From a bacterium (GTDB taxonomy: Bacteria > UBA8248): a DNA stretch of 64,000 nucleotides. Made by a program: the position numbers and the translations under genes. Below the pieces are notes generated by a model. That model did no database searches. It was not told the DNA's origin and saw only the letters and a list, made by a program, of their open reading frames with translations. Below, in pieces: positions 23,171 through 33,548 of this stretch; the stretch's first letter is position 1; each line of letters opens with the position of its first letter. The DNA is taken from assembly GCA_965207065.1 (NCBI GenBank), contig OZ242260.1, forward strand, positions 3,392,001 to 3,456,000. The letters run 5' to 3'.

Positions 23171-24031
23171 TTAGTCCGGCCTCCAGACCATGCCCCACCT
23201 CTGGATGGTCCATCTTTCGAGCGGGATGAGAAGCAGCCTGTCCGTGATCATCCACATGATGGCGATGACGAGCACGCCCAGGAACACTTCTTCAATCTTG
23301 TACTCGGCGGCGGAGACGAAGATCATGAAGCCCAGGCCGCTGTCGCCGCCTATCATCTCGGCTGCGATGAGTGCGCGCCAGCCGAAGCCCATGCTCATGC
23401 GCACCCCGGTGACGATGCTGGGCAGGGCGCCGGGAATATAAACCTGGGTGATGATGGCCCACCGCCCGCCGCCCATCGTCATGACGGAGTTCTCATACAC
23501 CCGAGGCACGCCCCGGACTCCCAGCAGCGTGTTGAAGAAGATGAGCCAGAACACGGTGTTCAGCAGGATGAAGAGCGTCGTGAGCCAGCCGGTTCCGAAC
23601 CAGACGATGGCGAGCGGCACCCAGGCGATGCCGGATATGGCGTTCGCGAACACGCCGATGGGCTCGAGCGCGTGGGCGAAGCGGCGGCTCATGCCCGCCA
23701 GCACGCCCAGGGCGATGCCCGATGGAATGCCGATGACGAGACTCAGGCCCACGCGGCCCAGACTCGAGAGAATGTGATTGGTGAACATGCACTCGTACTG
23801 CATCGAGAGCACCGCGCTCGCCCCTGCACAACCATCTGAAAGCGTGTAAATCGCCTCCCAGATGGTGCCGATGGGCGGGATGAAGACAGGCGGGAGCCAT
23901 TCCATCGAGGTGTTCATCTGCCAGAAGGCCAGCAGCACGACGAAGGGGATGCTCCCCAGCATGATTCTCCGCAGCCGCTGGCGGCCGAAGCGTTTTTGAA
24001 TGCCGATGGCGGCCGTCTGGAGTACACTCAT
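23171..24031 (-). CDS. ABC transporter permease (SsuC/TauC type)
   Basis: IAWVPLAI.WFG, IPGALPSI, WRALIAAEM, GLGFMI; ATGA overlap with the upstream permease. Confidence 0.9.
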   Translation of the reverse strand: MSVLQTAAIGIQKRFGRQRLRRIMLGSIPFVVLLAFWQMNTSMEWLPPVFIPPIGTIWEAIYTLSDGCAGASAVLSMQYECMFTNHILSSLGRVGLSLVIGIPSGIALGVLAGMSRRFAHALEPIGVFANAISGIAWVPLAIVWFGTGWLTTLFILLNTVFWLIFFNTLLGVRGVPRVYENSVMTMGGGRWAIITQVYIPGALPSIVTGVRMSMGFGWRALIAAEMIGGDSGLGFMIFVSAAEYKIEEVFLGVLVIAIMWMITDRLLLIPLERWTIQRWGMVWRPD

Positions 24032-24852
24032 CGTTGAACGAGCCCCCACCTTTGAATGGTGTCCGCCTCGATGGGACGCAGGGCGAAGCGGTCGATCATG
24101 ATCCAGATGACGCCGATCATCACCATGCCGAGGATGACCTGGGCGGTGAGGTCCGCATCCTGCGCGGTGAAGATCATCCACCCCAAGCCTCGCCTTCCGG
24201 CGAGCATCTCGCCCGCGATGACGGCCCGCCATGCGTAGCCGATGCCCAGCCGGGCACCTGTGGCGATGTGGGGCATGGCGCTTGGTATCAGTACGTCCTT
24301 TACGATTCTCAGGCGCGAAGCCCCGAGTGTTCTCAGGGCGTTCACCAGAATCATCGGGGTGCTGCGAACGCCCGTCAGGACGTTGAAGGCTATCGGGAAA
24401 AAGCAGGTGTATAGAATGACGACGAACACCGTCTTCTCGCTGTTGCCCCACCAGACGACGATGATGGGCAGGATGGCGATGCCCGATATGGACTGAAAGA
24501 AGTTCATGATGGGGTAGAACATGTCCGAGACGGTGCGGTTCAGCCCCAGGGCGATGCCGAACGGGATGCCGAGCAACAGGCCGATGGCGCTGCCGATGAC
24601 GAGCCGCCAGAGCGTCTGGCCGATGTAGTTGGGCAATAAACCCTTCCAGATGACGTCGGTAGAAGACAGGACGACCGAAAGGGGTGAGGGGAGGTAGCGG
24701 CTCGGGTTGGGGATGTTCTCGGAGATGACGCTCCACAAGACGAGAATCCCCGCGATGAGGAGCACGAGTTCAATGCCGCCTCCCTTGATGAAACTCATCC
24801 ATCGCCTCGAACGTGCTTTTCCTCTTGGAGCCGTCTCGCTACTCCTCGTCAT
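24028..24852 (-). CDS. ABC transporter permease (SsuC/TauC type)
   Basis: LRTLGAS, IPSAMPHI, WRAVIAGEM, GLGWMI; start inferred. Confidence 0.9.
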   Translation of the reverse strand: MTRSSETAPRGKARSRRWMSFIKGGGIELVLLIAGILVLWSVISENIPNPSRYLPSPLSVVLSSTDVIWKGLLPNYIGQTLWRLVIGSAIGLLLGIPFGIALGLNRTVSDMFYPIMNFFQSISGIAILPIIVVWWGNSEKTVFVVILYTCFFPIAFNVLTGVRSTPMILVNALRTLGASRLRIVKDVLIPSAMPHIATGARLGIGYAWRAVIAGEMLAGRRGLGWMIFTAQDADLTAQVILGMVMIGVIWIMIDRFALRPIEADTIQRWGLVQR

Positions 24853-25627
24853 CGAACACCTCCTCGCGCACGAGGCGTAGGATTTCATCGCGCGGGTCGG
24901 TGTAGGTTTTCTCGGAGAGCAGGTCCTTCCAGATGCGATTCTCGCGCGGAACGTTAATCTTGACGGTGGCCTTGAGCTTGCCCGGACGGCGGGAGAAGAT
25001 GAAGCACCTGTCACCCAGGAACGCGGCCTCATCCACGTTGTGCGTGATGAAGAGAATGGTCTTGCGCGTCGCGATGGCGATGCGGTTCAGCTCTTCCTGC
25101 AGGGTGATTCTCGTCTGCGCGTCCACGGCGGCGAAGGGCTCGTCCATCAGCATCACCACCGGGTTCGCGCACAGCGTCCGCGCGAGGGCGCAGCGTTGTT
25201 TCATGCCGCCCGAGAGCTCGTGCGGATAGCGATCCTCAAAGCCCGAGAGGCCGACCAGGTCGACGAACTCCTGCACCCTTTGCTCCCGCTCGCTCCTGGC
25301 GATGCCCTGAATCTCCAGGCCGTGGCCGATGTTTCTCGCCACGGTGCGCCAGGGGAGAATGGCGTGTTCCTGAAACACCACCCCCCTGTCCGGGCCCGGC
25401 CCCTGCACCTCCCTGCCGTCCACCTGTACGCTGCCCTCGGTGTGGGGGAGAAGCCCCGCGAGGATGTTCAAGAGCGTGGTCTTGCCGCAGCCGCTCGGGC
25501 CGACGACGGCGGAGAATTCGCCGTCCTCCACCGAGAGGCTCACCTGATCGAGCGCGTGAACGTCCTCTCCCGTGTATTCGTCCGGATAGTGGTGCGATAG
25601 TCTGTCGACGACCAGTTTCGCAGGCAT
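24839..25627 (-). CDS. ABC transporter ATP-binding protein (nitrate/sulfonate type)
   Basis: GPSGCGKT, LSGGMKQR, LMDEPF, ITH. Confidence 0.95.
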   Translation of the reverse strand: MPAKLVVDRLSHHYPDEYTGEDVHALDQVSLSVEDGEFSAVVGPSGCGKTTLLNILAGLLPHTEGSVQVDGREVQGPGPDRGVVFQEHAILPWRTVARNIGHGLEIQGIARSEREQRVQEFVDLVGLSGFEDRYPHELSGGMKQRCALARTLCANPVVMLMDEPFAAVDAQTRITLQEELNRIAIATRKTILFITHNVDEAAFLGDRCFIFSRRPGKLKATVKINVPRENRIWKDLLSEKTYTDPRDEILRLVREEVFDDEE

Positions 25628-25701: not shown

Positions 25702-26718
25702 CTATTTGAGGTCCTTGAACCACTCGGGATGTTCCTTCATGGTCCGGTTGATGAACTGGAAGTCGAAGTATTTCTTGGGGTCGTAGGGGCGCTTCATCTT
25801 CTTCTGGGCGATGAGCTGTTTCACCGAGAATTTGAAGGCCTTGAGCGTGTTCTCGCCCAGACGCGTGTCATACGTCCACCACTTGATGGTGCGCTTGATG
25901 AGGGCGGCGTCCATACCGCGCACGTAGCGCGCGCCGATTTTCGAAATCTCGTCGATGTTCTTGGGGTCGCGCACATAAGCGGCCGCCTCGGACATGCCGT
26001 TCACGAACGCCTGGGTCGCCTTCTTGTCCTTGTAGACGCGCTCGGGCACGCCGTGCATGCCCGCGCAGAAGCATACGTAGTCGCCGCCGCGCGACACGAT
26101 GGAGGAACCCTTCACCTTGTCGACCATGCGGGTGAGGTAGGGCTCCCAAGCCACCATGGCGTCCACGCCGCCCGAATCGAACAGCGAGACGAGGCTCGGC
26201 GGACGCACGTTGATTCGGCGCACGCCGCCCACGCCGATGCCGTTTCTCTCGAGCAGGGTGCGGAGATAGAGGTCGCCGGTGGAGCCGAAGGTCGCGCCGA
26301 TTTTCTTGCCTTTCAAGTCCTTGATGCTCTTGACGCCCGTTCCGGGGCGCACGGCGATGCCCACCATCTCATCCGTGGTGGATTTCTTGTAGGAGCCGCC
26401 GACGTAGCCCACGACGCCGCGCACCTTGATGCCGCGCTCCAGCGCCGCCGGCAGGTTGGTGAAAGCGGCGGGCGCGAAGTCGATCTGACCGGCCTTGAGC
26501 GATTTGGTGAGCTGGGCGCCCGTGTTGCGCACGACGACTTTCCCGTCGAGCCCGTTCTTGGCGAAGAAACCCTTGTCGACGCCGACGAAGACTATCATGC
26601 CGCCGGTGTTGCTGGCCGCGCCGAGCTTGAGCGTGGGCGCCGCCGAGGCGAGTCCCGCCGCCGAGAGCGCATAGACGAGCGCGACGGCCAGAATGATGCG
26701 AACAGAATAGCTTTTCAT
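25702..26718 (-). CDS. ABC substrate-binding protein (SsuA/NMT1 type)
   Basis: RBS GGAGG, signal peptide, DKGFF, DLKGKKIG, WEPY. Confidence 0.9.
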   Translation of the reverse strand: MKSYSVRIILAVALVYALSAAGLASAAPTLKLGAASNTGGMIVFVGVDKGFFAKNGLDGKVVVRNTGAQLTKSLKAGQIDFAPAAFTNLPAALERGIKVRGVVGYVGGSYKKSTTDEMVGIAVRPGTGVKSIKDLKGKKIGATFGSTGDLYLRTLLERNGIGVGGVRRINVRPPSLVSLFDSGGVDAMVAWEPYLTRMVDKVKGSSIVSRGGDYVCFCAGMHGVPERVYKDKKATQAFVNGMSEAAAYVRDPKNIDEISKIGARYVRGMDAALIKRTIKWWTYDTRLGENTLKAFKFSVKQLIAQKKMKRPYDPKKYFDFQFINRTMKEHPEWFKDLK

Positions 26719-26798: not shown

Positions 26799-26861
26799 TT
26801 GAGTCGATCATTTTATTGTTTTGAGATGCAAGCGCCATGCGCGTATCCGCTTTCGTCTGCC

Positions 26862-27698
26862 CTATTGCGCCTGCACGATGGGTGTATCCTCCCGGTTCCC
26901 CCATTCCTTCCAGGAACTCATGTAGTTTTTCACCTTGGGATAATCCAGGAGCCTGAGAGCGAAGTAACCGTGCGCCGCACGGTAGCCCGTCTGTCAGTAG
27001 GCTGTAACTTCTTTCTCGGGCGTGACCCCGATGGCCTCGAATTGGGCGCGAAGCTCATCCGCGGGCTTCATCTCGCCATCGGGCGTCAGGTGCTGGAGCC
27101 ACTCCTGCCAGACCGCGCCAGGGATGATTCCGTCCCGTTTGGCCCTCTTGCCCCGTCCTTCCCACTCCTCAATCGAGCGGGTGTCGAGGAGCATGTGGTT
27201 GTCGTCCTCGATGGCCGCCAGTACGTCCTCACGCGTGGCGAGGCGGTGCGGCTCGAACGCCATCTGGAAAGAAGCGGCTTTGGGCACCTCGGCGTCGCGC
27301 GTCGTCTCGAAGCCCGCCCGCTCCCATGCGCCGTAGCCGCCGTCCAGCACGTGGACGTCCTTGTGGCCGAAAAGCTCCAGCATCCAGAAGCCGCGCACGC
27401 TCGTGTTGCCGACGAAATCGTCGTAGAAGACGATGGTGTTCTCGAACGATACCCCCCGGTTTCCCAGCAGGAACGCCCACATGGAGAAAAAATTCTTAAG
27501 CGGCGCCTCGCCCGAGTCGTCGCTGTTCACGCCGTAGACGTCGAAATGCCGCGCGCCGGGGATATGGCCCATCGTGTAGCGCTCGCCGGGGCGCGTGTCG
27601 ATGATTCTTAAATTCGGGTCGTCCATGCGCTCTTTTAGTTGTTGGGCCGACCAGAGCAGGTCGGGATTCGCATAGGCTTTCGGGTTATCGCTCGACAT
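26862..27698 (-). CDS. Tandem-domain rhodanese/sulfurtransferase, probable selenoprotein (Sec at TGA 26996-26994)
   Basis: GHIPGA and GIIPGA motifs; the ORF stops at EVTAY*, but readthrough gives [43 protein letters not shown], completing the rhodanese fold with the UGA at the catalytic Cys position. Confidence 0.88.
26967..26983 (-). promoter_or_regulatory. SECIS-like hairpin
   Basis: ACCGUGC-GGC-GCACGGU stem-loop starting 10 nt after the UGA. Confidence 0.65.
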
Positions 27699-27714
27699 GG
27701 TGTTCTCCTTCGGA

Positions 27715-28461
27715 CTAATCCGTCCAGAAGCCGCCGTTCACGTCCACAGCTTCGCCGTTGATGTGGGCTGCTTCCTCGCTTGAGAGGAACAAGACGGTGT
27801 GCCAAACGTCTTCCGGCGTGGTGAGCCTGCCCATGGGATGGGCGTTCGCGGCGTTCACGAGCATCTCGGGCGGTGACTGGAAGTGAAGGCCCGTATCCGC
27901 GGGTCCCGGCTGTATGGTGTTTATCGTCACGCCCGTTTTGGCGAGTTCGCGCGCGAGGTTGAACGTCATGGCGAGCAGGCCCGCCTTGGCGGCGGAGTAG
28001 GTGAGGTTCGGGCCGATGCCACCCATCTTCCCAGCGATGGACGCGAAGCTGACGATGCGCCCCGTTCCCGAGGCCTTGAGCGCCTCGATGGTCTCCTGGA
28101 TGCAGAAATAGGGAGCCAGCAGGTTCACGTTCAGGACGACGTTCCAGTCCTCTTCTTCGAGTTCCAATGGCGGGCGAATCGGCATGTAGCCGGCCACGTT
28201 CGCCAGCACGTCGCAGCCGCCCAGCCATTCGAGAGCCGCGCGCATGGTGGTGCGGATGGCGTCCACGTCGGCCAGATCGCAGGGGAGCTTGAAGAGCTGA
28301 TCGGATGGGCCTTCGATCGCGTCGAAAGCCGCGCCTTCCCTGTCGGTGGCGAAAACCCTGGCGCCGGCCTCGATGTATCCCTGCAGAATACGGCTTCCCA
28401 TCGCGCCCGCCGCGCCCGTGAGGATGACCTTGCGGCCCTGAAAATCAAAACGAATGGGCAT
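27715..28461 (-). CDS. Short-chain dehydrogenase/reductase
   Basis: TGAAGAMG, NVAG, YSAAK, NTIQPG. Confidence 0.9.
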   Translation of the reverse strand: MPIRFDFQGRKVILTGAAGAMGSRILQGYIEAGARVFATDREGAAFDAIEGPSDQLFKLPCDLADVDAIRTTMRAALEWLGGCDVLANVAGYMPIRPPLELEEEDWNVVLNVNLLAPYFCIQETIEALKASGTGRIVSFASIAGKMGGIGPNLTYSAAKAGLLAMTFNLARELAKTGVTINTIQPGPADTGLHFQSPPEMLVNAANAHPMGRLTTPEDVWHTVLFLSSEEAAHINGEAVDVNGGFWTD

Positions 28462-28811
28462 ATTGCGTTACTCCAGTCCTGGTGTTTGGGGATGAACGGA
28501 ATGTCCGTCTTGAACTTCTCGTAACGGCGGATGATACACCACAAAACGGAGAGGAGAAAGTGGAAGGCCGCCATTTCCTGTAATGCCGAAAGGGGCGCTC
28601 ATGCACCGATTTTTTGGGGTTTTATTTTGCTCCTTGAGTTGTTATGATAGTTTCATCGAATGCAAGCGAAACACCATCGAATTCTATCGGGTCCCGAAGG
28701 GATTGCGATGTGCTCGAAGCAGCATACCTATCCAATTATCATGTAAAGGATTGAGAATATAAAAACGCCCTGCGGTATGCGTTTCGATGCCGCGAACGAG
28801 TGGAGGTTGTG

Positions 28812-31097
28812 ATGGCTGAACTCTCATACATCGGAAAAAGCGTGCCTCGCGTCGACGGGCCGGAAAAGGTGACGGGCCGGGCCATGTTCACCCTGGACCT
28901 TCAGTTGCCCAAGATGCTCCACGGGAGGCTGCTGGGGAGTCCCCTGCCGCACGCGCGAATCAAGAACATCGATACCAGCCGCGCCGAGAGACTTCCCGGC
29001 GTCAAACTCGTGATGACGGCCAAGGACATCCCGGAGGGGGTGGAGTGGGGCGTCGTACCCGTTTGCTACGATCAGCGTCCCCTCGCCTCGGACAAGGTGC
29101 GTCACGTGGGCGATTCGGTGGCGGCCGTCATCGCGATATCTGAAGATATCGCGAAAGAAGCGCTCGATTTGATCGACGTCGACTACGAGGATCTTCCCGC
29201 CGTCTTCGATCCGCGCGAGGCGATGCAAGAGGGCGCCCCTGTCATCCATGACAGGTACCCGGACAACATCGCTTTCACCAAGCACATGGAATTCGGCGAC
29301 GTGGACCGCATGTTCGACGAAGCGCACCATGTGAGCGAGTTGGCCACTTCCTCCTCACGCCAGATGCACGGCTCTTTGGAGGCGCACGTCTCCATCGCCG
29401 AGTGGTCGCAGAAGGGCGACGTAACCGTCTACAACTCCTCGCAATGCCCGAGTCTTTCGAGCCAGTATTTCTCGAAACTGCTGAAGATTCCGGAAGCCCA
29501 GATTCGTGTTGTCACAAATTACGTGGGCGGGGGTTTCGGCGGAAAGGCGACGAGCAAGTTCAACATCGATTTCCTCTCCATCATCGCGGCGAAAAAGCTG
29601 AACCTCCCCGTGAAATTCTACTACACGCGGGAAGAGGAGTTTCTCCTCGGCACCCACCGGACGAAGCAGTTCCACGTCTGGCGCATCGCCACCGACAAGG
29701 ACGGCATGCTGCTCGCGCGCGACACCCAGATGGTGGTGGAAAACGGCGGCTATTCGGATTACAGCCCGGCTGTCGGCGGCATCACGGCGCACATGGGCGG
29801 GAGCATCTACAACTACAAGGCCTATCGCCACCACGCCGACGTCGTCTGCACGAACGTGCCGCCCGGCGGCGCGATGCGCGGAATCGGCAACGCCGGCTAT
29901 GCGTTCGGTTCGGAACTCGCCATGGAGAAACACGCCGAAGAAATCGGCATGGACCCGGCGGAGTTTCGCATCAAGAATTTCGTGAGGAAGGGCGACACCA
30001 CCATCATCGGGGCCAAGATTACCAGTTGCGGCGTTTCCGAATGTGTGGAAGAGGCGGTCAAGCGCGTGCCCTGGCGCGAGAAACAGCCGAGCAGCAACGG
30101 GAAAAAGCGCGGCTTCGGGCTGGCGGCGGCGGTCCATTTCACCGGCGCGCGCGCGATGGGGCCGGAGACGGCGGGCGCGTTCATCAAGATGAACAAGGAC
30201 GGCACCGTGCAGTTGCTCTCGGGCACCATCGAGATGGGCAACGGCTCGGACACCACGCTCGCGCAGATTTGCGCCGAAGCAATTGGCATACGCGTGGAGG
30301 ACGTGCGGATCATCAACGGCGATACCGCGGTGAATCCCTACGGATGGGGCGTGCGCGGAAGCCGCACGACGACCATCGACGGCGAGGCCACGCGCCTGGC
30401 GTCGGTCCAGGCGAAGAACATGCTCTTCAAGGGCGCGGCGGAACTGCTCGAGTGCGACCCGAACGACCTCGACGCGCGCGATGGTAAAATTTACGTCTCC
30501 AGCTCGCCCGAGCGGCAGGTGACCCACAGCGAAGCCTACATGAAGTTATATGAAAAAGAGGGCAGTGAGGCCGTCTACACGGCGTCTTCTTACGACTCGC
30601 CGAGCGAGACGCCCGACCCCGTGACGGGTTACGGTAACTGGTCCGCGGCCTACGCCTATGGCGCCAAGGTGGCGGAGGTGGAAGTGGACACCGAAACCGG
30701 CGCGTTCGAGGTGTTGCGCGTCATCAGCACGAACGACTGCGGAACCATCGTGAACCCGGCCGGCGCGCAGGGCCAGTTGGACGGCGGCGCGGTCATGGGC
30801 GTGGGCTACGCCATGATGGAGGATTTCGAGTGCGAAGACGGCCAGCCGGTGAACGCGAACTGGCTCGACTATAAACTGCCTACGACACAGGATGTGCCCG
30901 AGCTCGAATCCGTGCTCATCGAGACGGAAAATCCCTCGGGGCCTTTTGGCGCGAAAGGGTTGGGCGAGATGGCGCAACTGGGCACCTCGGCAGCAATCGG
31001 CAACGCGATCTATGACGCTGTGGGCGTGCGGATCACGTCGCTGCCGATTACGCCGGAAAAGGTGCTGGCCGCGTTGAACGAGAAAAACGGCGAATAA
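28812..31097 (+). CDS. Xanthine dehydrogenase family molybdopterin-binding subunit
   Basis: RVDGPEKVTG, VGGGFGGK, GAMRGIG, EMGNGSDT, GAKGLGE. Confidence 0.93.
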   Translation: MAELSYIGKSVPRVDGPEKVTGRAMFTLDLQLPKMLHGRLLGSPLPHARIKNIDTSRAERLPGVKLVMTAKDIPEGVEWGVVPVCYDQRPLASDKVRHVGDSVAAVIAISEDIAKEALDLIDVDYEDLPAVFDPREAMQEGAPVIHDRYPDNIAFTKHMEFGDVDRMFDEAHHVSELATSSSRQMHGSLEAHVSIAEWSQKGDVTVYNSSQCPSLSSQYFSKLLKIPEAQIRVVTNYVGGGFGGKATSKFNIDFLSIIAAKKLNLPVKFYYTREEEFLLGTHRTKQFHVWRIATDKDGMLLARDTQMVVENGGYSDYSPAVGGITAHMGGSIYNYKAYRHHADVVCTNVPPGGAMRGIGNAGYAFGSELAMEKHAEEIGMDPAEFRIKNFVRKGDTTIIGAKITSCGVSECVEEAVKRVPWREKQPSSNGKKRGFGLAAAVHFTGARAMGPETAGAFIKMNKDGTVQLLSGTIEMGNGSDTTLAQICAEAIGIRVEDVRIINGDTAVNPYGWGVRGSRTTTIDGEATRLASVQAKNMLFKGAAELLECDPNDLDARDGKIYVSSSPERQVTHSEAYMKLYEKEGSEAVYTASSYDSPSETPDPVTGYGNWSAAYAYGAKVAEVEVDTETGAFEVLRVISTNDCGTIVNPAGAQGQLDGGAVMGVGYAMMEDFECEDGQPVNANWLDYKLPTTQDVPELESVLIETENPSGPFGAKGLGEMAQLGTSAAIGNAIYDAVGVRITSLPITPEKVLAALNEKNGE

Positions 31098-31116
31098 CGA
31101 GGAGAGGGGAGAAAAA

Positions 31117-31983
31117 ATGGCTTTTCGGCATTTACCCGCGAACAGCGCGGAGGAAACGCTCGCCGCCATGAAGGAGCATGGCGACGACGGGAAAGTGTTC
31201 GCCGGCGGCGTCGCCCTCTCGATTCTCATGAAATCGGGCGTGTACGAACCAGACGTGTTGATCGACATCGCTGGAGCGAACGATCTGGATTTCATCGAAG
31301 AGGCTGAAAACGGCGGCGTCCGAATCGGGGCGAAGACGGTGCACCGCAAGATCGAGACTTCCCCCCTCGTAAAGGAGCGTTTCCCGCTGCTCGCGGAAAT
31401 TTTTCACAACGTGGCTACGATACGCATCCGGAACCAGGGGACCGTAGGCGGCAACCTGTGCTTTGCGGAACCGGCCTCGGATCCGCCTGGCGCCTTTCTG
31501 GCCCTCGAGGCTCGGATGAACACCAGGAAGGCAGACGGGACGGAACGCATGATTCCCGCAACGGAGTTCTGGACGGGATACTACGAATGCGCCCTGGATG
31601 AGGACGAGTTGCTGTGCTCCATCGAGGTCGAACCATTGCCCGATGGTTTCCGGACGGCGTGTACGCGCTTCACCACGCGCTCGAAAGAGGACAAGCCCTG
31701 CGTATCCGTTTCCACCGCGGTGCTTACCGGAGAAGACGGCAAGACGGCAAAAGAGGTGAGAATCGGTCTGGGCGGCGTGGAAGCCGTATTCAGACGCCTC
31801 ACAGCGGTGGAAGATGGCCTGCAGGGCAAGGAACTCAACCAGGAGAACATCGACGCCGTGCTCGCTGAGGCGCTCGATGACCTCGACCCTTTGACCGACA
31901 TCCGCGCGAGCGGCGACTACAGACGGCAGGTGACGCCCGTCCTGGTCCGCAGAACCATCCTGAAGGCGTTAGGCGCGTCCTGA
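31117..31983 (+). CDS. Xanthine dehydrogenase family FAD-binding subunit
   Basis: FAGG, IRNQGTVGGNL...PASD, DIRASGDYR. Confidence 0.92.
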   Translation: MAFRHLPANSAEETLAAMKEHGDDGKVFAGGVALSILMKSGVYEPDVLIDIAGANDLDFIEEAENGGVRIGAKTVHRKIETSPLVKERFPLLAEIFHNVATIRIRNQGTVGGNLCFAEPASDPPGAFLALEARMNTRKADGTERMIPATEFWTGYYECALDEDELLCSIEVEPLPDGFRTACTRFTTRSKEDKPCVSVSTAVLTGEDGKTAKEVRIGLGGVEAVFRRLTAVEDGLQGKELNQENIDAVLAEALDDLDPLTDIRASGDYRRQVTPVLVRRTILKALGAS

Positions 31984-32041: not shown

Positions 32042-32234
32042 GTAGTAGGTGTACATACGATATTCTGAAGAGCAGGAAGTGGGAATTCATATGCTTTAGC
32101 GAGGATGAGCGAGACATCCGACAGATTGTTCGCTCTGCAGGGGAGACATAAATCTGGAAGAGGTCGTTGTTCATGCAACCACCTCTTCATATGCAGCGTA
32201 CTTTTTGCCGAACTTCTCACGGGGGGACAGAGAT

Positions 32235-33548
32235 ATGAAGAGAAAACGGACGAATCGTTTCGGCCTGGCGCTTCTTGGATGCGTAACAGCCTTGGCGTTG
32301 TTCGTCGCACCGGCTGCCGGAGGCGAGATAGACGATCTCAAGGCGCAGATCAAGGCGCTTATGAACCGTCTCGAAGCGCTCGAAGCACGAGAAAAGAAAA
32401 TGAAGGCCGATATGATGGCCGCGCAGGAAGCCGCCCAGAAAAAGGCCGTGGCTACCGGCGATTTCCCGGGTTCCTGGAAGATGCCGGGGAGCAACACATC
32501 GGTTTCCTTCAGCGGCTACGTCAAGCTCGATGCGATCTACGACCTCGACCAGGATCTGGGCGATTCCTTTTTCGGCTATGACTGGGGAGGCGGCGCGAGC
32601 GGCATCCTCCTGGAGGGCGATGACAGCGGTCAGCGCAAAACCTCCCTGCACGCCAGGCAGACGCGCCTGCGCTTCGACAGCCTGACGCCGACGAGCAGGG
32701 GCAACCTCAAGACGAGAATCGAGACAGATTTCTATGGCGGCGGCAACGCACTTCGTCTGCGTCATGCCTACGCCACTTTGGGCGGAGTGCTGGCGGGCCA
32801 GACCTGGACGACATTGATGGATGAAAATACCTACGCCGATACGATTGATTTTGAAGGACCCGTGGGCGTGGTCGCCACGCGTAGGCCCCAGGTGCGCTAT
32901 AGCCAGGCGATGGGGAAGAACCTTACTGCCCAGGTCGCGCTCGAGGATCCAGACGCCCCGACTATACTGATGGCCGGCGGAAGCACGTCCTCTCAAGAGC
33001 GGATTCCGAACTTTGTGGCGGCTCTGCGAATGAAAACGGGTTGGGGCGCCATTAACGTGTCGGGATTGGTGGGGCAGGTTCTTTACGAACAAGGCGCAGT
33101 TGAAGAAAGCCTCACTATCAGTGCCCTCCATCTCGGCGCGAACTTCGGTCTGGGCAAGAACACCCGCCTGTGGGGTACGTTCAACGTCGGCCAAGGCGGG
33201 TTGGACAAATCCATGCTGGGATCACCCGGCGCCGCCATCCTGAGCGCGAACAATGAACTGGAAGCGCTCGATTCCATGGGCGGTTTCGTCGGCGTCACGC
33301 ACAACTGGAGCAGTTCCGTGAGTTCGGGCCTGTATTATGGTTGGGTGGAGAACGATTTCGAAGATGCCGCCAAAGCGGTGTACCCGGACCTCAGCCAGTC
33401 GCTCCAAACGGTGCACGCCAACATCTGGTGGTCGCCTGCGCCCAAGATGCGGGCGGGCGTGGAGATCATACAAGGCAGGCGCGAAACCAACGGCGGTGAG
33501 GATGGTGACGCGACGCGCCTGCAGTTGGGCTTTCAGTATAGTTTCTAA
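32235..33548 (+). CDS. DcaP family trimeric outer-membrane porin
   Basis: Signal peptide, coiled coil, GYVKLD, RQTR, LRLRHAY..GQTWT, terminal YSF. Confidence 0.88.
   Translation: MKRKRTNRFGLALLGCVTALALFVAPAAGGEIDDLKAQIKALMNRLEALEAREKKMKADMMAAQEAAQKKAVATGDFPGSWKMPGSNTSVSFSGYVKLDAIYDLDQDLGDSFFGYDWGGGASGILLEGDDSGQRKTSLHARQTRLRFDSLTPTSRGNLKTRIETDFYGGGNALRLRHAYATLGGVLAGQTWTTLMDENTYADTIDFEGPVGVVATRRPQVRYSQAMGKNLTAQVALEDPDAPTILMAGGSTSSQERIPNFVAALRMKTGWGAINVSGLVGQVLYEQGAVEESLTISALHLGANFGLGKNTRLWGTFNVGQGGLDKSMLGSPGAAILSANNELEALDSMGGFVGVTHNWSSSVSSGLYYGWVENDFEDAAKAVYPDLSQSLQTVHANIWWSPAPKMRAGVEIIQGRRETNGGEDGDATRLQLGFQYSF

Follow-up and report, generated by a model that had tools for sequence, protein, structure and literature searches.

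We analysed a 64,000-nucleotide stretch of bacterial DNA (GTDB lineage UBA8248; assembly GCA_965207065.1, contig OZ242260.1, positions 3,392,001 to 3,456,000 of the forward strand), referred to below as the window, and focused on a minus-strand gene for a tandem rhodanese that carries an in-frame UGA at the position of the catalytic cysteine. Read with genetic code table 11, the open reading frame (ORF) occupies 26994..27698 and ends after 234 amino acids at EVTAY-TGA. Past this TGA the same frame stays open for 43 more codons, up to a TAG, so that the read-through product has 278 residues. A perfect stem-loop that resembles a bacterial selenocysteine insertion sequence (SECIS) follows the UGA, and the gene lies directly behind one for a short-chain dehydrogenase/reductase (SDR). 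An earlier note on this DNA had described the EVTAY ending, the continuation of the frame to the TAG and a 7-bp stem-loop starting 10 nt after the UGA, all of which can be read directly from the sequence. The features discussed here are collected in Table 1.

Table 1. Features of the rhodanese locus and its neighbourhood; positions are those of the window.
Feature	Position	Strand	Details
Full read-through coding sequence of the tandem rhodanese with predicted selenocysteine (Sec)	26862..27698	-	278 residues plus TAG; ATG 27698-27696, TAG 26864-26862
In-frame UGA, codon 235, predicted Sec codon in place of the catalytic Cys	26994..26996	-	Aligns with the Cys of 1uar, 1e0c and 1urh
SECIS-like hairpin ACCGUGC-GGC-GCACGGU	26967..26983	-	Perfect 7-bp stem, GGC triloop; stem starts 10 nt and loop 17 nt after the UGA
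Suppressed synonymous variation, codons 234-244 (UGA, 10-nt spacer and hairpin)	26967..26999	-	Mean codon entropy 0.145 (0.831 elsewhere)
Shine-Dalgarno-like GGAG	27705..27708	-	6 nt before the ATG, within the 16-nt spacer after the SDR gene stop
SDR, directly upstream	27715..28461	-	Pfam adh_short_C2, E 7e-46; NCBIfam FabG-like, 179 bits (cutoff 296)
SsuA/NMT1-family ATP-binding cassette (ABC) substrate-binding protein, downstream	25702..26718	-	Pfam NMT1_2, NMT1; NCBIfam SsuA_fam, 111.5 bits (cutoff 163.5)
ABC transporter ATPase (SaoA/TauB-like)	24839..25627	-	Pfam ABC_tran; NCBIfam SaoA, 240.9 bits (cutoff 360)
ABC permease (TauC-like)	24028..25032	-	Pfam BPD_transp_1; NCBIfam TauC, 130.5 bits (below cutoff)
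Xanthine-dehydrogenase-family molybdoenzyme, divergent	28800..31983	+	Large subunit 28800-31097; flavin adenine dinucleotide (FAD) subunit 31117-31983

The read-through product was matched twice by the Pfam Rhodanese domain (E 1.1e-34), and the locus likewise holds two genomic Rhodanese matches, the second of which contains the TGA. Full-length alignments were obtained to the Thermus thermophilus rhodanese (1uar; E 4.2e-42), Azotobacter vinelandii RhdA (1e0c; E 2.8e-41) and Escherichia coli SseA (1urh; E 2.8e-35). Residue 235, the first position of the six-residue active-site loop in the C-terminal domain, aligns in all three with the catalytic Cys (YCRIAERS, HCQTHHRS and SCGSGVTA, respectively). 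The N-terminal domain is without a catalytic Cys and has FYDDF where the C-terminal domain has AYUQT. Because the read-through translation contains no cysteine at all, residue 235 would be the sole chalcogen nucleophile of the protein. An AlphaFold model built with 31 sequences (predicted local distance difference test score, pLDDT, 93.5; predicted template-modelling score, pTM, 0.92) superposes on 1uar with a template-modelling (TM) score of 0.87 and on 1e0c with 0.84, at a sequence identity of 30-34%. In the model, the UGA position comes right after strand 230-234 and the tail forms the active-site loop, a helix (239-250), a strand (256-259) and a further helix (263-266). No NCBIfam model reached its cutoff for the product; the best, PRK11493, matched end to end with 143.6 bits against a cutoff of 250. 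On these alignments the product is a tandem rhodanese with the sulfurtransferase fold, for which sulfur-transfer activity is predicted. The earlier note had also pointed to a Y.GSW.EW motif after the loop, which holds for the family, where the consensus in our alignment (A1) is YLGSWxEW, but not to the letter for this protein, which reads YMSSWKEW.

To follow the UGA among relatives, we carried out a read-through search of 61 related genomes, 28 of which contain an orthologue with exactly one TGA (identity 100-73%); the more distant orthologues, at 70%, 67% and 65% identity, are free of internal stops. Codon 235 is TGA in all 28 of the orthologous loci that were fetched, which stem from independent assemblies, and TGC in both fetched Cys-type loci (PYCQTGYRSAH). 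Across 51 genomes of the phylum the TGA form was present in 32, all of them in four genera of one family, and the Cys form in three other genera of the same family, with no match at E 1e-90 or better in 14 genomes; in one further genome of the same genus the gene is cut by a contig end at residue 198. A one-base error of sequencing or assembly in what is really a TGC or TGT codon has only the single-base distance between these triplets to recommend it, and is opposed by the occurrence of TGA at the same codon in so many separately assembled genomes and by whole clusters of 234-residue gene calls from several sources. Since TGA is conserved in every one of the 28 orthologous loci, we consider such an error ruled out, its probability being negligible.

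The homologues in the databases place the UGA in the same way. Among the best 120, 94 are full length and every one of these has Cys at the aligned column, within the loops CQTGYRS (60), CNTGYRS (23), CQSGGRS (6), CQTGYRA (2), CQGGYRS (2) or CHTGYRS (1); 25 others stop precisely at residue 234, and the last is a fragment. The proposal of the earlier note that the UGA stands at the catalytic cysteine is thus borne out, both against solved rhodaneses and against these homologues, as is the expectation that relatives would share it. A quick maximum-likelihood tree of 120 rows, from which a 209-aa fragment was left out and in which the window protein was cut to 234 residues, gathered the 26 Sec-type rows in one clade (Shimodaira-Hasegawa-like approximate likelihood ratio test, SH-aLRT, 100) nested among Cys forms, which are also its nearest neighbours. 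The tree fits a single putative Cys-to-Sec switch. In 9 of the 28 loci the gene itself terminates with UGA and, because other, ordinary genes do so too, the genetic code is not globally changed. One relative (G004) has a second Sec rhodanese copy with the TGA (G004:C3:37089-37920; 93% identity over residues 66-277). The first 77 residues of that copy match as a separate overlapping piece, which suggests either a frameshift or a copy that arose by duplication or contamination; the contamination figure of the genome is 9%.

We then asked whether the tail encoded after the UGA behaves as protein-coding sequence. For eight pairs of diverged orthologues, the ratio of nonsynonymous to synonymous substitution rates (dN/dS) was 0.017-0.361 over codons 245-274 and 0.094-0.198 over codons 1-233, with high synonymous divergence in both parts. 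As far as codon 274, the frame after the UGA has neither a stop nor an indel in 28/28 loci, down to 73% identity. Twelve of the 36 invariant columns of the family alignment fall in the 43-residue tail, namely C235, G238, R240, H243, Y245, R249, N258, Y259, W263, E265, W266 and P273. A true stop at the UGA would leave a 234-residue truncated rhodanese or a pseudogene, followed by the remnant of an ancestral Cys-type gene; all public gene calls do end at residue 234, and table 11 reads the codon as a stop. Against this stand the purifying selection on the tail, as strong as on the rest of the gene, the intact frame, and the loss that truncation would entail, since the tail holds the active-site loop and a third of the invariant residues and, in the model, the core helix and core strand as well. 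A tail that is both open and under purifying selection excludes a decaying remnant, and decay of the downstream frame, which the earlier note had named as a possible outcome, was not seen in the eight pairs. We therefore give a genuine stop very little credence, if somewhat more than an error in the sequence.

In its minimal form, the hairpin that follows the UGA has a free energy of -9.7 kcal/mol, and it lies in the most synonymously constrained part of the gene. Among 114 amino-acid-invariant degenerate codons, synonymous variation was missing from 7 of the 10 within codons 234-244 and from 3 of the 104 elsewhere, a difference with a Mann-Whitney p of 6.6e-6 that overstates the independence of the compared sequences, which are kin. 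Mean codon entropy was 0.145 in this stretch and 0.831 elsewhere, and the minimum of third-position entropy in 10-codon windows starts at codons 233-235. Both Cys-type loci have 3 of the 7 stem pairs broken. The residues behind the difference are S241A and A244G, at sites that are nearly invariant in the Cys forms and where the changes create stem pairs in the Sec forms. To estimate how often such a structure arises by chance, we scanned the genome and found that 54 of 132,631 TGA triplets (0.04%) have a perfect stem of 7 bp or more whose triloop starts with GG and lies 16-18 nt downstream; with the loosest criteria a hairpin followed 972 of the 132,631 (0.73%). Bacterial SECIS elements are described in the text of the Sargasso Sea study as stem-loops that directly follow the UGA and have a G in their small apical loop (Zhang et al., 2005; PMC1088965), and the hairpin described here, with its 7-bp stem, GGC loop and distance of 10 nt from the UGA, has the same form. 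From these features we infer that it is a SECIS element.

The earlier note had made its proposal depend on the presence of sel genes, and the genome (4.48 Mb in one contig, 59.5% GC) has them all. The selA (579 bits) and selB (386 bits) genes are adjacent and score above curated cutoffs, as do selD (334.5 bits) and a tRNA-Sec (75.9 bits), to which ARAGORN assigned the anticodon TCA. The selD gene has one in-frame TGA of its own, at KAGG-U-GSK, followed by a hairpin (GGGUCC-GGA-GGACCU) with a GGA triloop 17 nt after the UGA that resembles the rhodanese hairpin. These findings bear on a further explanation, in which a near-cognate or suppressor tRNA decodes the UGA as a standard amino acid (e.g. 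Cys, Trp or Gly) and the hairpin is a generic read-through stimulator or is kept for some other reason. Such decoding would agree with the sequence-only derivation of Sec at position 235 and with a hairpin that shows neither covariation nor an Rfam match. It is harder to reconcile with the complete Sec machinery, with a hairpin geometry shared with selD and other Sec-family genes of the same genome, and with the use of UGA as the terminal stop of this gene in some of its loci, which speaks against genome-wide recoding. A UGA placed exactly on a catalytic Cys is, moreover, the pattern of the selenoprotein families treated in the text of PMC1088965. We regard read-through with a standard residue as very improbable, though less so than a true stop.

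Several observations weigh against reading the gene as that of a selenoprotein. The 71-nt fold around the hairpin is only slightly more stable than those of shuffled sequences (z = -1.58; 12 of 200 shuffles fold as well). No compensatory changes in the stem were found among the 28 Sec-type loci, because the hairpin is nearly invariant in all of them, and the few variants that occur weaken the pairing, as CGT->CGC (2/28) gives a C-A mismatch in the middle of the stem and GGT->GGC (3/28) an A-C at its base. Searches of Rfam came back empty, both for the whole window at gathering score and for positions 26850-27050 at E up to 10. The genomic context is weak, with an ABC transporter downstream in only 17 of the 28 Sec-type loci and every neighbour scoring below its NCBIfam equivalog cutoff. 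Both the presence of Sec, rather than another residue, at position 235 and the chemistry are things we infer from comparison. Taken together, however, the UGA on the catalytic Cys and its conservation, the selection on the tail, the Sec machinery and the frozen hairpin support the selenoprotein reading. We are highly confident that this is a real selenoprotein gene, predicted to encode a 278-residue tandem rhodanese in which UGA-235 is read as a Sec nucleophile, in line with the 278-aa Sec enzyme that the earlier note had envisaged.

If so, the hairpin 10 nt past the UGA, with its GGC triloop 17 nt past it, would recruit SelB carrying Sec-tRNA(Sec). The ribosome would then insert Sec and go on to make the loop U-Q-T-G-Y-R, the core helix and strand and the conserved SW.EW motif. 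As in Cys rhodaneses, catalysis may proceed by double displacement, in which the selenolate would take a sulfane sulfur from a donor to form an enzyme Se-S intermediate and pass the sulfur on to an acceptor. As the protein has no cysteine, no internal resolving thiol would be involved.

The neighbourhood of the gene is led by the SDR gene, which is directly upstream in 28/28 Sec-type loci with gaps of roughly 16-55 nt (16 nt here), and is absent beside one Cys-type locus and ~780 nt away in the other. The SDR and Sec rhodanese genes apparently form an operon in all 28 Sec-type loci. The ORF listed for the permease overlaps the ATPase gene, so its true start is probably later. In one of the Sec-type loci outside the 17 with the downstream transporter (L029), a convergent gene pair follows the rhodanese instead. 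On the other side, the divergent molybdoenzyme matched Pfam MoCoBD_1, MoCoBD_2, Ald_Xan_dh_C and FAD_binding_5. Its NCBIfam scores, 619 bits for 4-hydroxybenzoyl-CoA reductase alpha and 574 bits for XdhA, stay under the respective cutoffs, and in 22/28 Sec-type loci the N-terminus of the enzyme is encoded on the far side of the SDR gene. No [2Fe-2S] small-subunit gene was recognised beside the FAD subunit, and the ORF at 32105-32581 had no Pfam match at E 1e-5. In consensus scans the SDR gene is preceded by a promoter-like site and the minus-strand genes are not separated by any terminator-like site, with counts no higher than in shuffles in either case. Co-transcription with the SDR, often together with a sulfonate/taurine-type ABC importer, weakly suggests a role in organosulfur metabolism.

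It is tempting to speculate that the enzyme is a dedicated Se-S relay, an obligate partner of the upstream SDR rather than a general sulfurtransferase, in which an Se-S (or possibly Se-Se) intermediate might deliver sulfur or selenium to the divergent molybdoenzyme or to a pathway for imported organosulfonates; we consider this unlikely. Better supported than the relay is the idea that the single Cys-to-Sec switch forced S241A and A244G into the active-site helix to build the SECIS. If true, these two substitutions would be a case of RNA structure shaping the protein sequence of a catalytic site.

The same genome appears to contain many further selenoprotein genes. A scan for TGA codons with a hairpin and open frames gave 222 sites, which was too permissive, and a codon-usage filter reduced these to 17. 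The hairpin filter required GG at the start of the loop, so the agreement of these loops with that of the rhodanese is in part built into the search. Among the 16 further filtered sites, 12 reach Pfam cutoffs with a match that spans or abuts the TGA (CMD 5, GRDB 2, DSBA 2, OsmC 1, DsrE 1, CoA_trans 1) and one more has a CMD match just under the cutoff. Three candidates were set aside, two (L071, L079) that match nothing in Pfam and resemble antisense translations, and one (L080) with only a sub-threshold and doubtful zinc-ribbon match. In the window, 26 TGA sites, mostly in antisense frames, pass the codon-usage filter by itself and only the rhodanese passes it together with the hairpin; the filter does not discriminate at 59.5% GC, and this crude scan leaves room for other selenoprotein genes in the window. 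Apart from selD and the two rhodaneses, loci L067-L082 point to a large selenoproteome, in a list that is not exhaustive and comes from a crude hairpin filter. It includes five CMD/AhpD-like genes with CxxU-type contexts, of which four have a GGUC tetraloop at a distance of 21 nt from the UGA, besides two GrdB-like and two DsbA-like candidates and single OsmC-like and DsrE-like ones. According to the BSepDB text, three genomes with the labels Nitrospinota, Nitrospinaceae or Nitrospinae (GTDB phylum UBA8248) contain 48-54 selenoprotein genes, and the large selenoproteome seen here fits this count for the same phylum label.

Several of these loci deserve separate description. A second tandem rhodanese (L083, C1:2641570-2642418, plus strand) has an in-frame TGA (C1:2642287) at the catalytic position, LVLY-U-RLSHRAS, with a Pfam Rhodanese match of E 1e-30 and a stem-loop 3' of the UGA, and in four relatives (G001, G009, G016, G020) this paralogue carries a single TGA. 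A Cys-type tandem rhodanese is encoded in the genome as well, at C1:1242738-1243610. A gene of the CoA-transferase family (L078, C1:3021186-3022058, minus strand; PF01144, E 7.4e-21) carries a TGA in frame at codon 118, counted along the stop-to-stop frame (LTEHA-U-ASVLAGLRAA), and followed by a hairpin. Of the 40 relatives searched, 21 have an orthologue that likewise carries an in-frame TGA, at identities down to 65%; five of these 21 rows contain extra stops, which we take to fall in the untranslated 5' part of the query. Paralogues are without the stop, and the one in this genome, 46% identical, shows Cys in the corresponding column. The main text of a 2026 selenoproteome review does not mention the CoA-transferase family, and none of the six papers that contain selenocysteine, CoA-transferase and selenoprotein uses any of these terms in its title or abstract. 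L078 is possibly an undescribed selenoprotein family. The hairpin scan also brought up a recurring G-rich motif (TGACAAGGGGGGG...; e.g. C1:2090670, 2391068, 1680428, 1623740 and 1827005) and an identical 50-nt stretch at four sites (C1:34179, 905655, 1153930 and 2326473), both of which look like dispersed repeats or insertion-sequence ends.

As the earlier note had anticipated for standard gene callers, public databases end the protein at 234 aa. The truncated homologues have Nitrospinota as their source label, and one 90%-identity cluster has 152 members, with 15/15 of those listed being 234 aa or shorter. Because the protein is cut at this point and no NCBIfam model reaches its cutoff, annotation pipelines omit the catalytic loop and present the product as an inactive fragment, with consequences for metabolic reconstructions of a phylum related to marine nitrite oxidisers. 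Part of the value of the locus lies in correcting this annotation and in a clean comparison of Sec and Cys sisters. With a single Cys-to-Sec switch, close Cys-type sisters, a cysteine-free enzyme and a conserved SDR partner, it offers a convenient system in which to ask what selenium buys a sulfurtransferase.

Sec-containing rhodaneses are a known class, as the earlier note had said and as published lists confirm, which limits the novelty of the present gene. A new family, "Rhodanese-related sulfurtransferase, COG2897" (SseA), appears in the text of the Sargasso Sea study with three sequences, one of them with its SECIS drawn (Zhang et al., 2005; PMC1088965). In the corresponding text of later studies there are eight such sequences under cd01449 and one under COG2897 (GOS study; PMC2398784), and three under "Sulfurtransferase COG2897" (Olavius symbiont study; PMC1976440). 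A 2022 review enters the family under COG2897 (SseA), and the text of a 2026 review has it as "Rhodanese-like form 4, UxxG" (PMC13188914). As given in these texts, the entries are computational predictions. A literature phrase search found no experimentally studied Sec rhodanese; the published passages on Sec rhodaneses say nothing on the present clade, its SDR partner or its hairpin, and the BSepDB text available makes no mention of rhodanese. The supplements of published selenoprotein studies may list the clade. The gene belongs to a computationally known, experimentally untouched family that has been known since 2005, and is no new category; it adds a cleanly documented case to a family known, from the text of these sources, only through computational lists. 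Like the published family, it combines PF00581 with a predicted Sec in UxxG (U-Q-T-G here), the two-domain architecture of SseA, a marine bacterial source, a SECIS-like hairpin whose small apical loop contains G, and numerous homologues with Cys. This membership is based on domain, motif and architecture, not on sequence comparison with reference entries.

Other relatives can be told apart more sharply. The NCBIfam model NF041203, "rhodanese-related (seleno)protein" (LYCAU type; form 3, CxU), also describes a selenoprotein with the rhodanese fold, but it is a single-domain model of 126 positions with a CxU motif, unlike the tandem UxxG protein described here, which scored 34.4 bits against its cutoff of 115 and was rejected as a member. 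E. coli SseA, or 3-mercaptopyruvate sulfurtransferase (1urh, PRK11493), has the same architecture and aligns over the full length, but its loop is CGSGVTA as against UQTGYRA. Identity as a 3-mercaptopyruvate sulfurtransferase (the SseA equivalog) was rejected on the PRK11493 score and on the lack of a CG[ST]GVT-type loop. The closest solved structures are those of RhdA and the T. thermophilus rhodanese, which use Cys and share only the modest sequence identity given above, but have the same tandem domains; the loop of RhdA, CQTHHRS, resembles the U/CQTGYR(A/S) of the present protein and its sisters.

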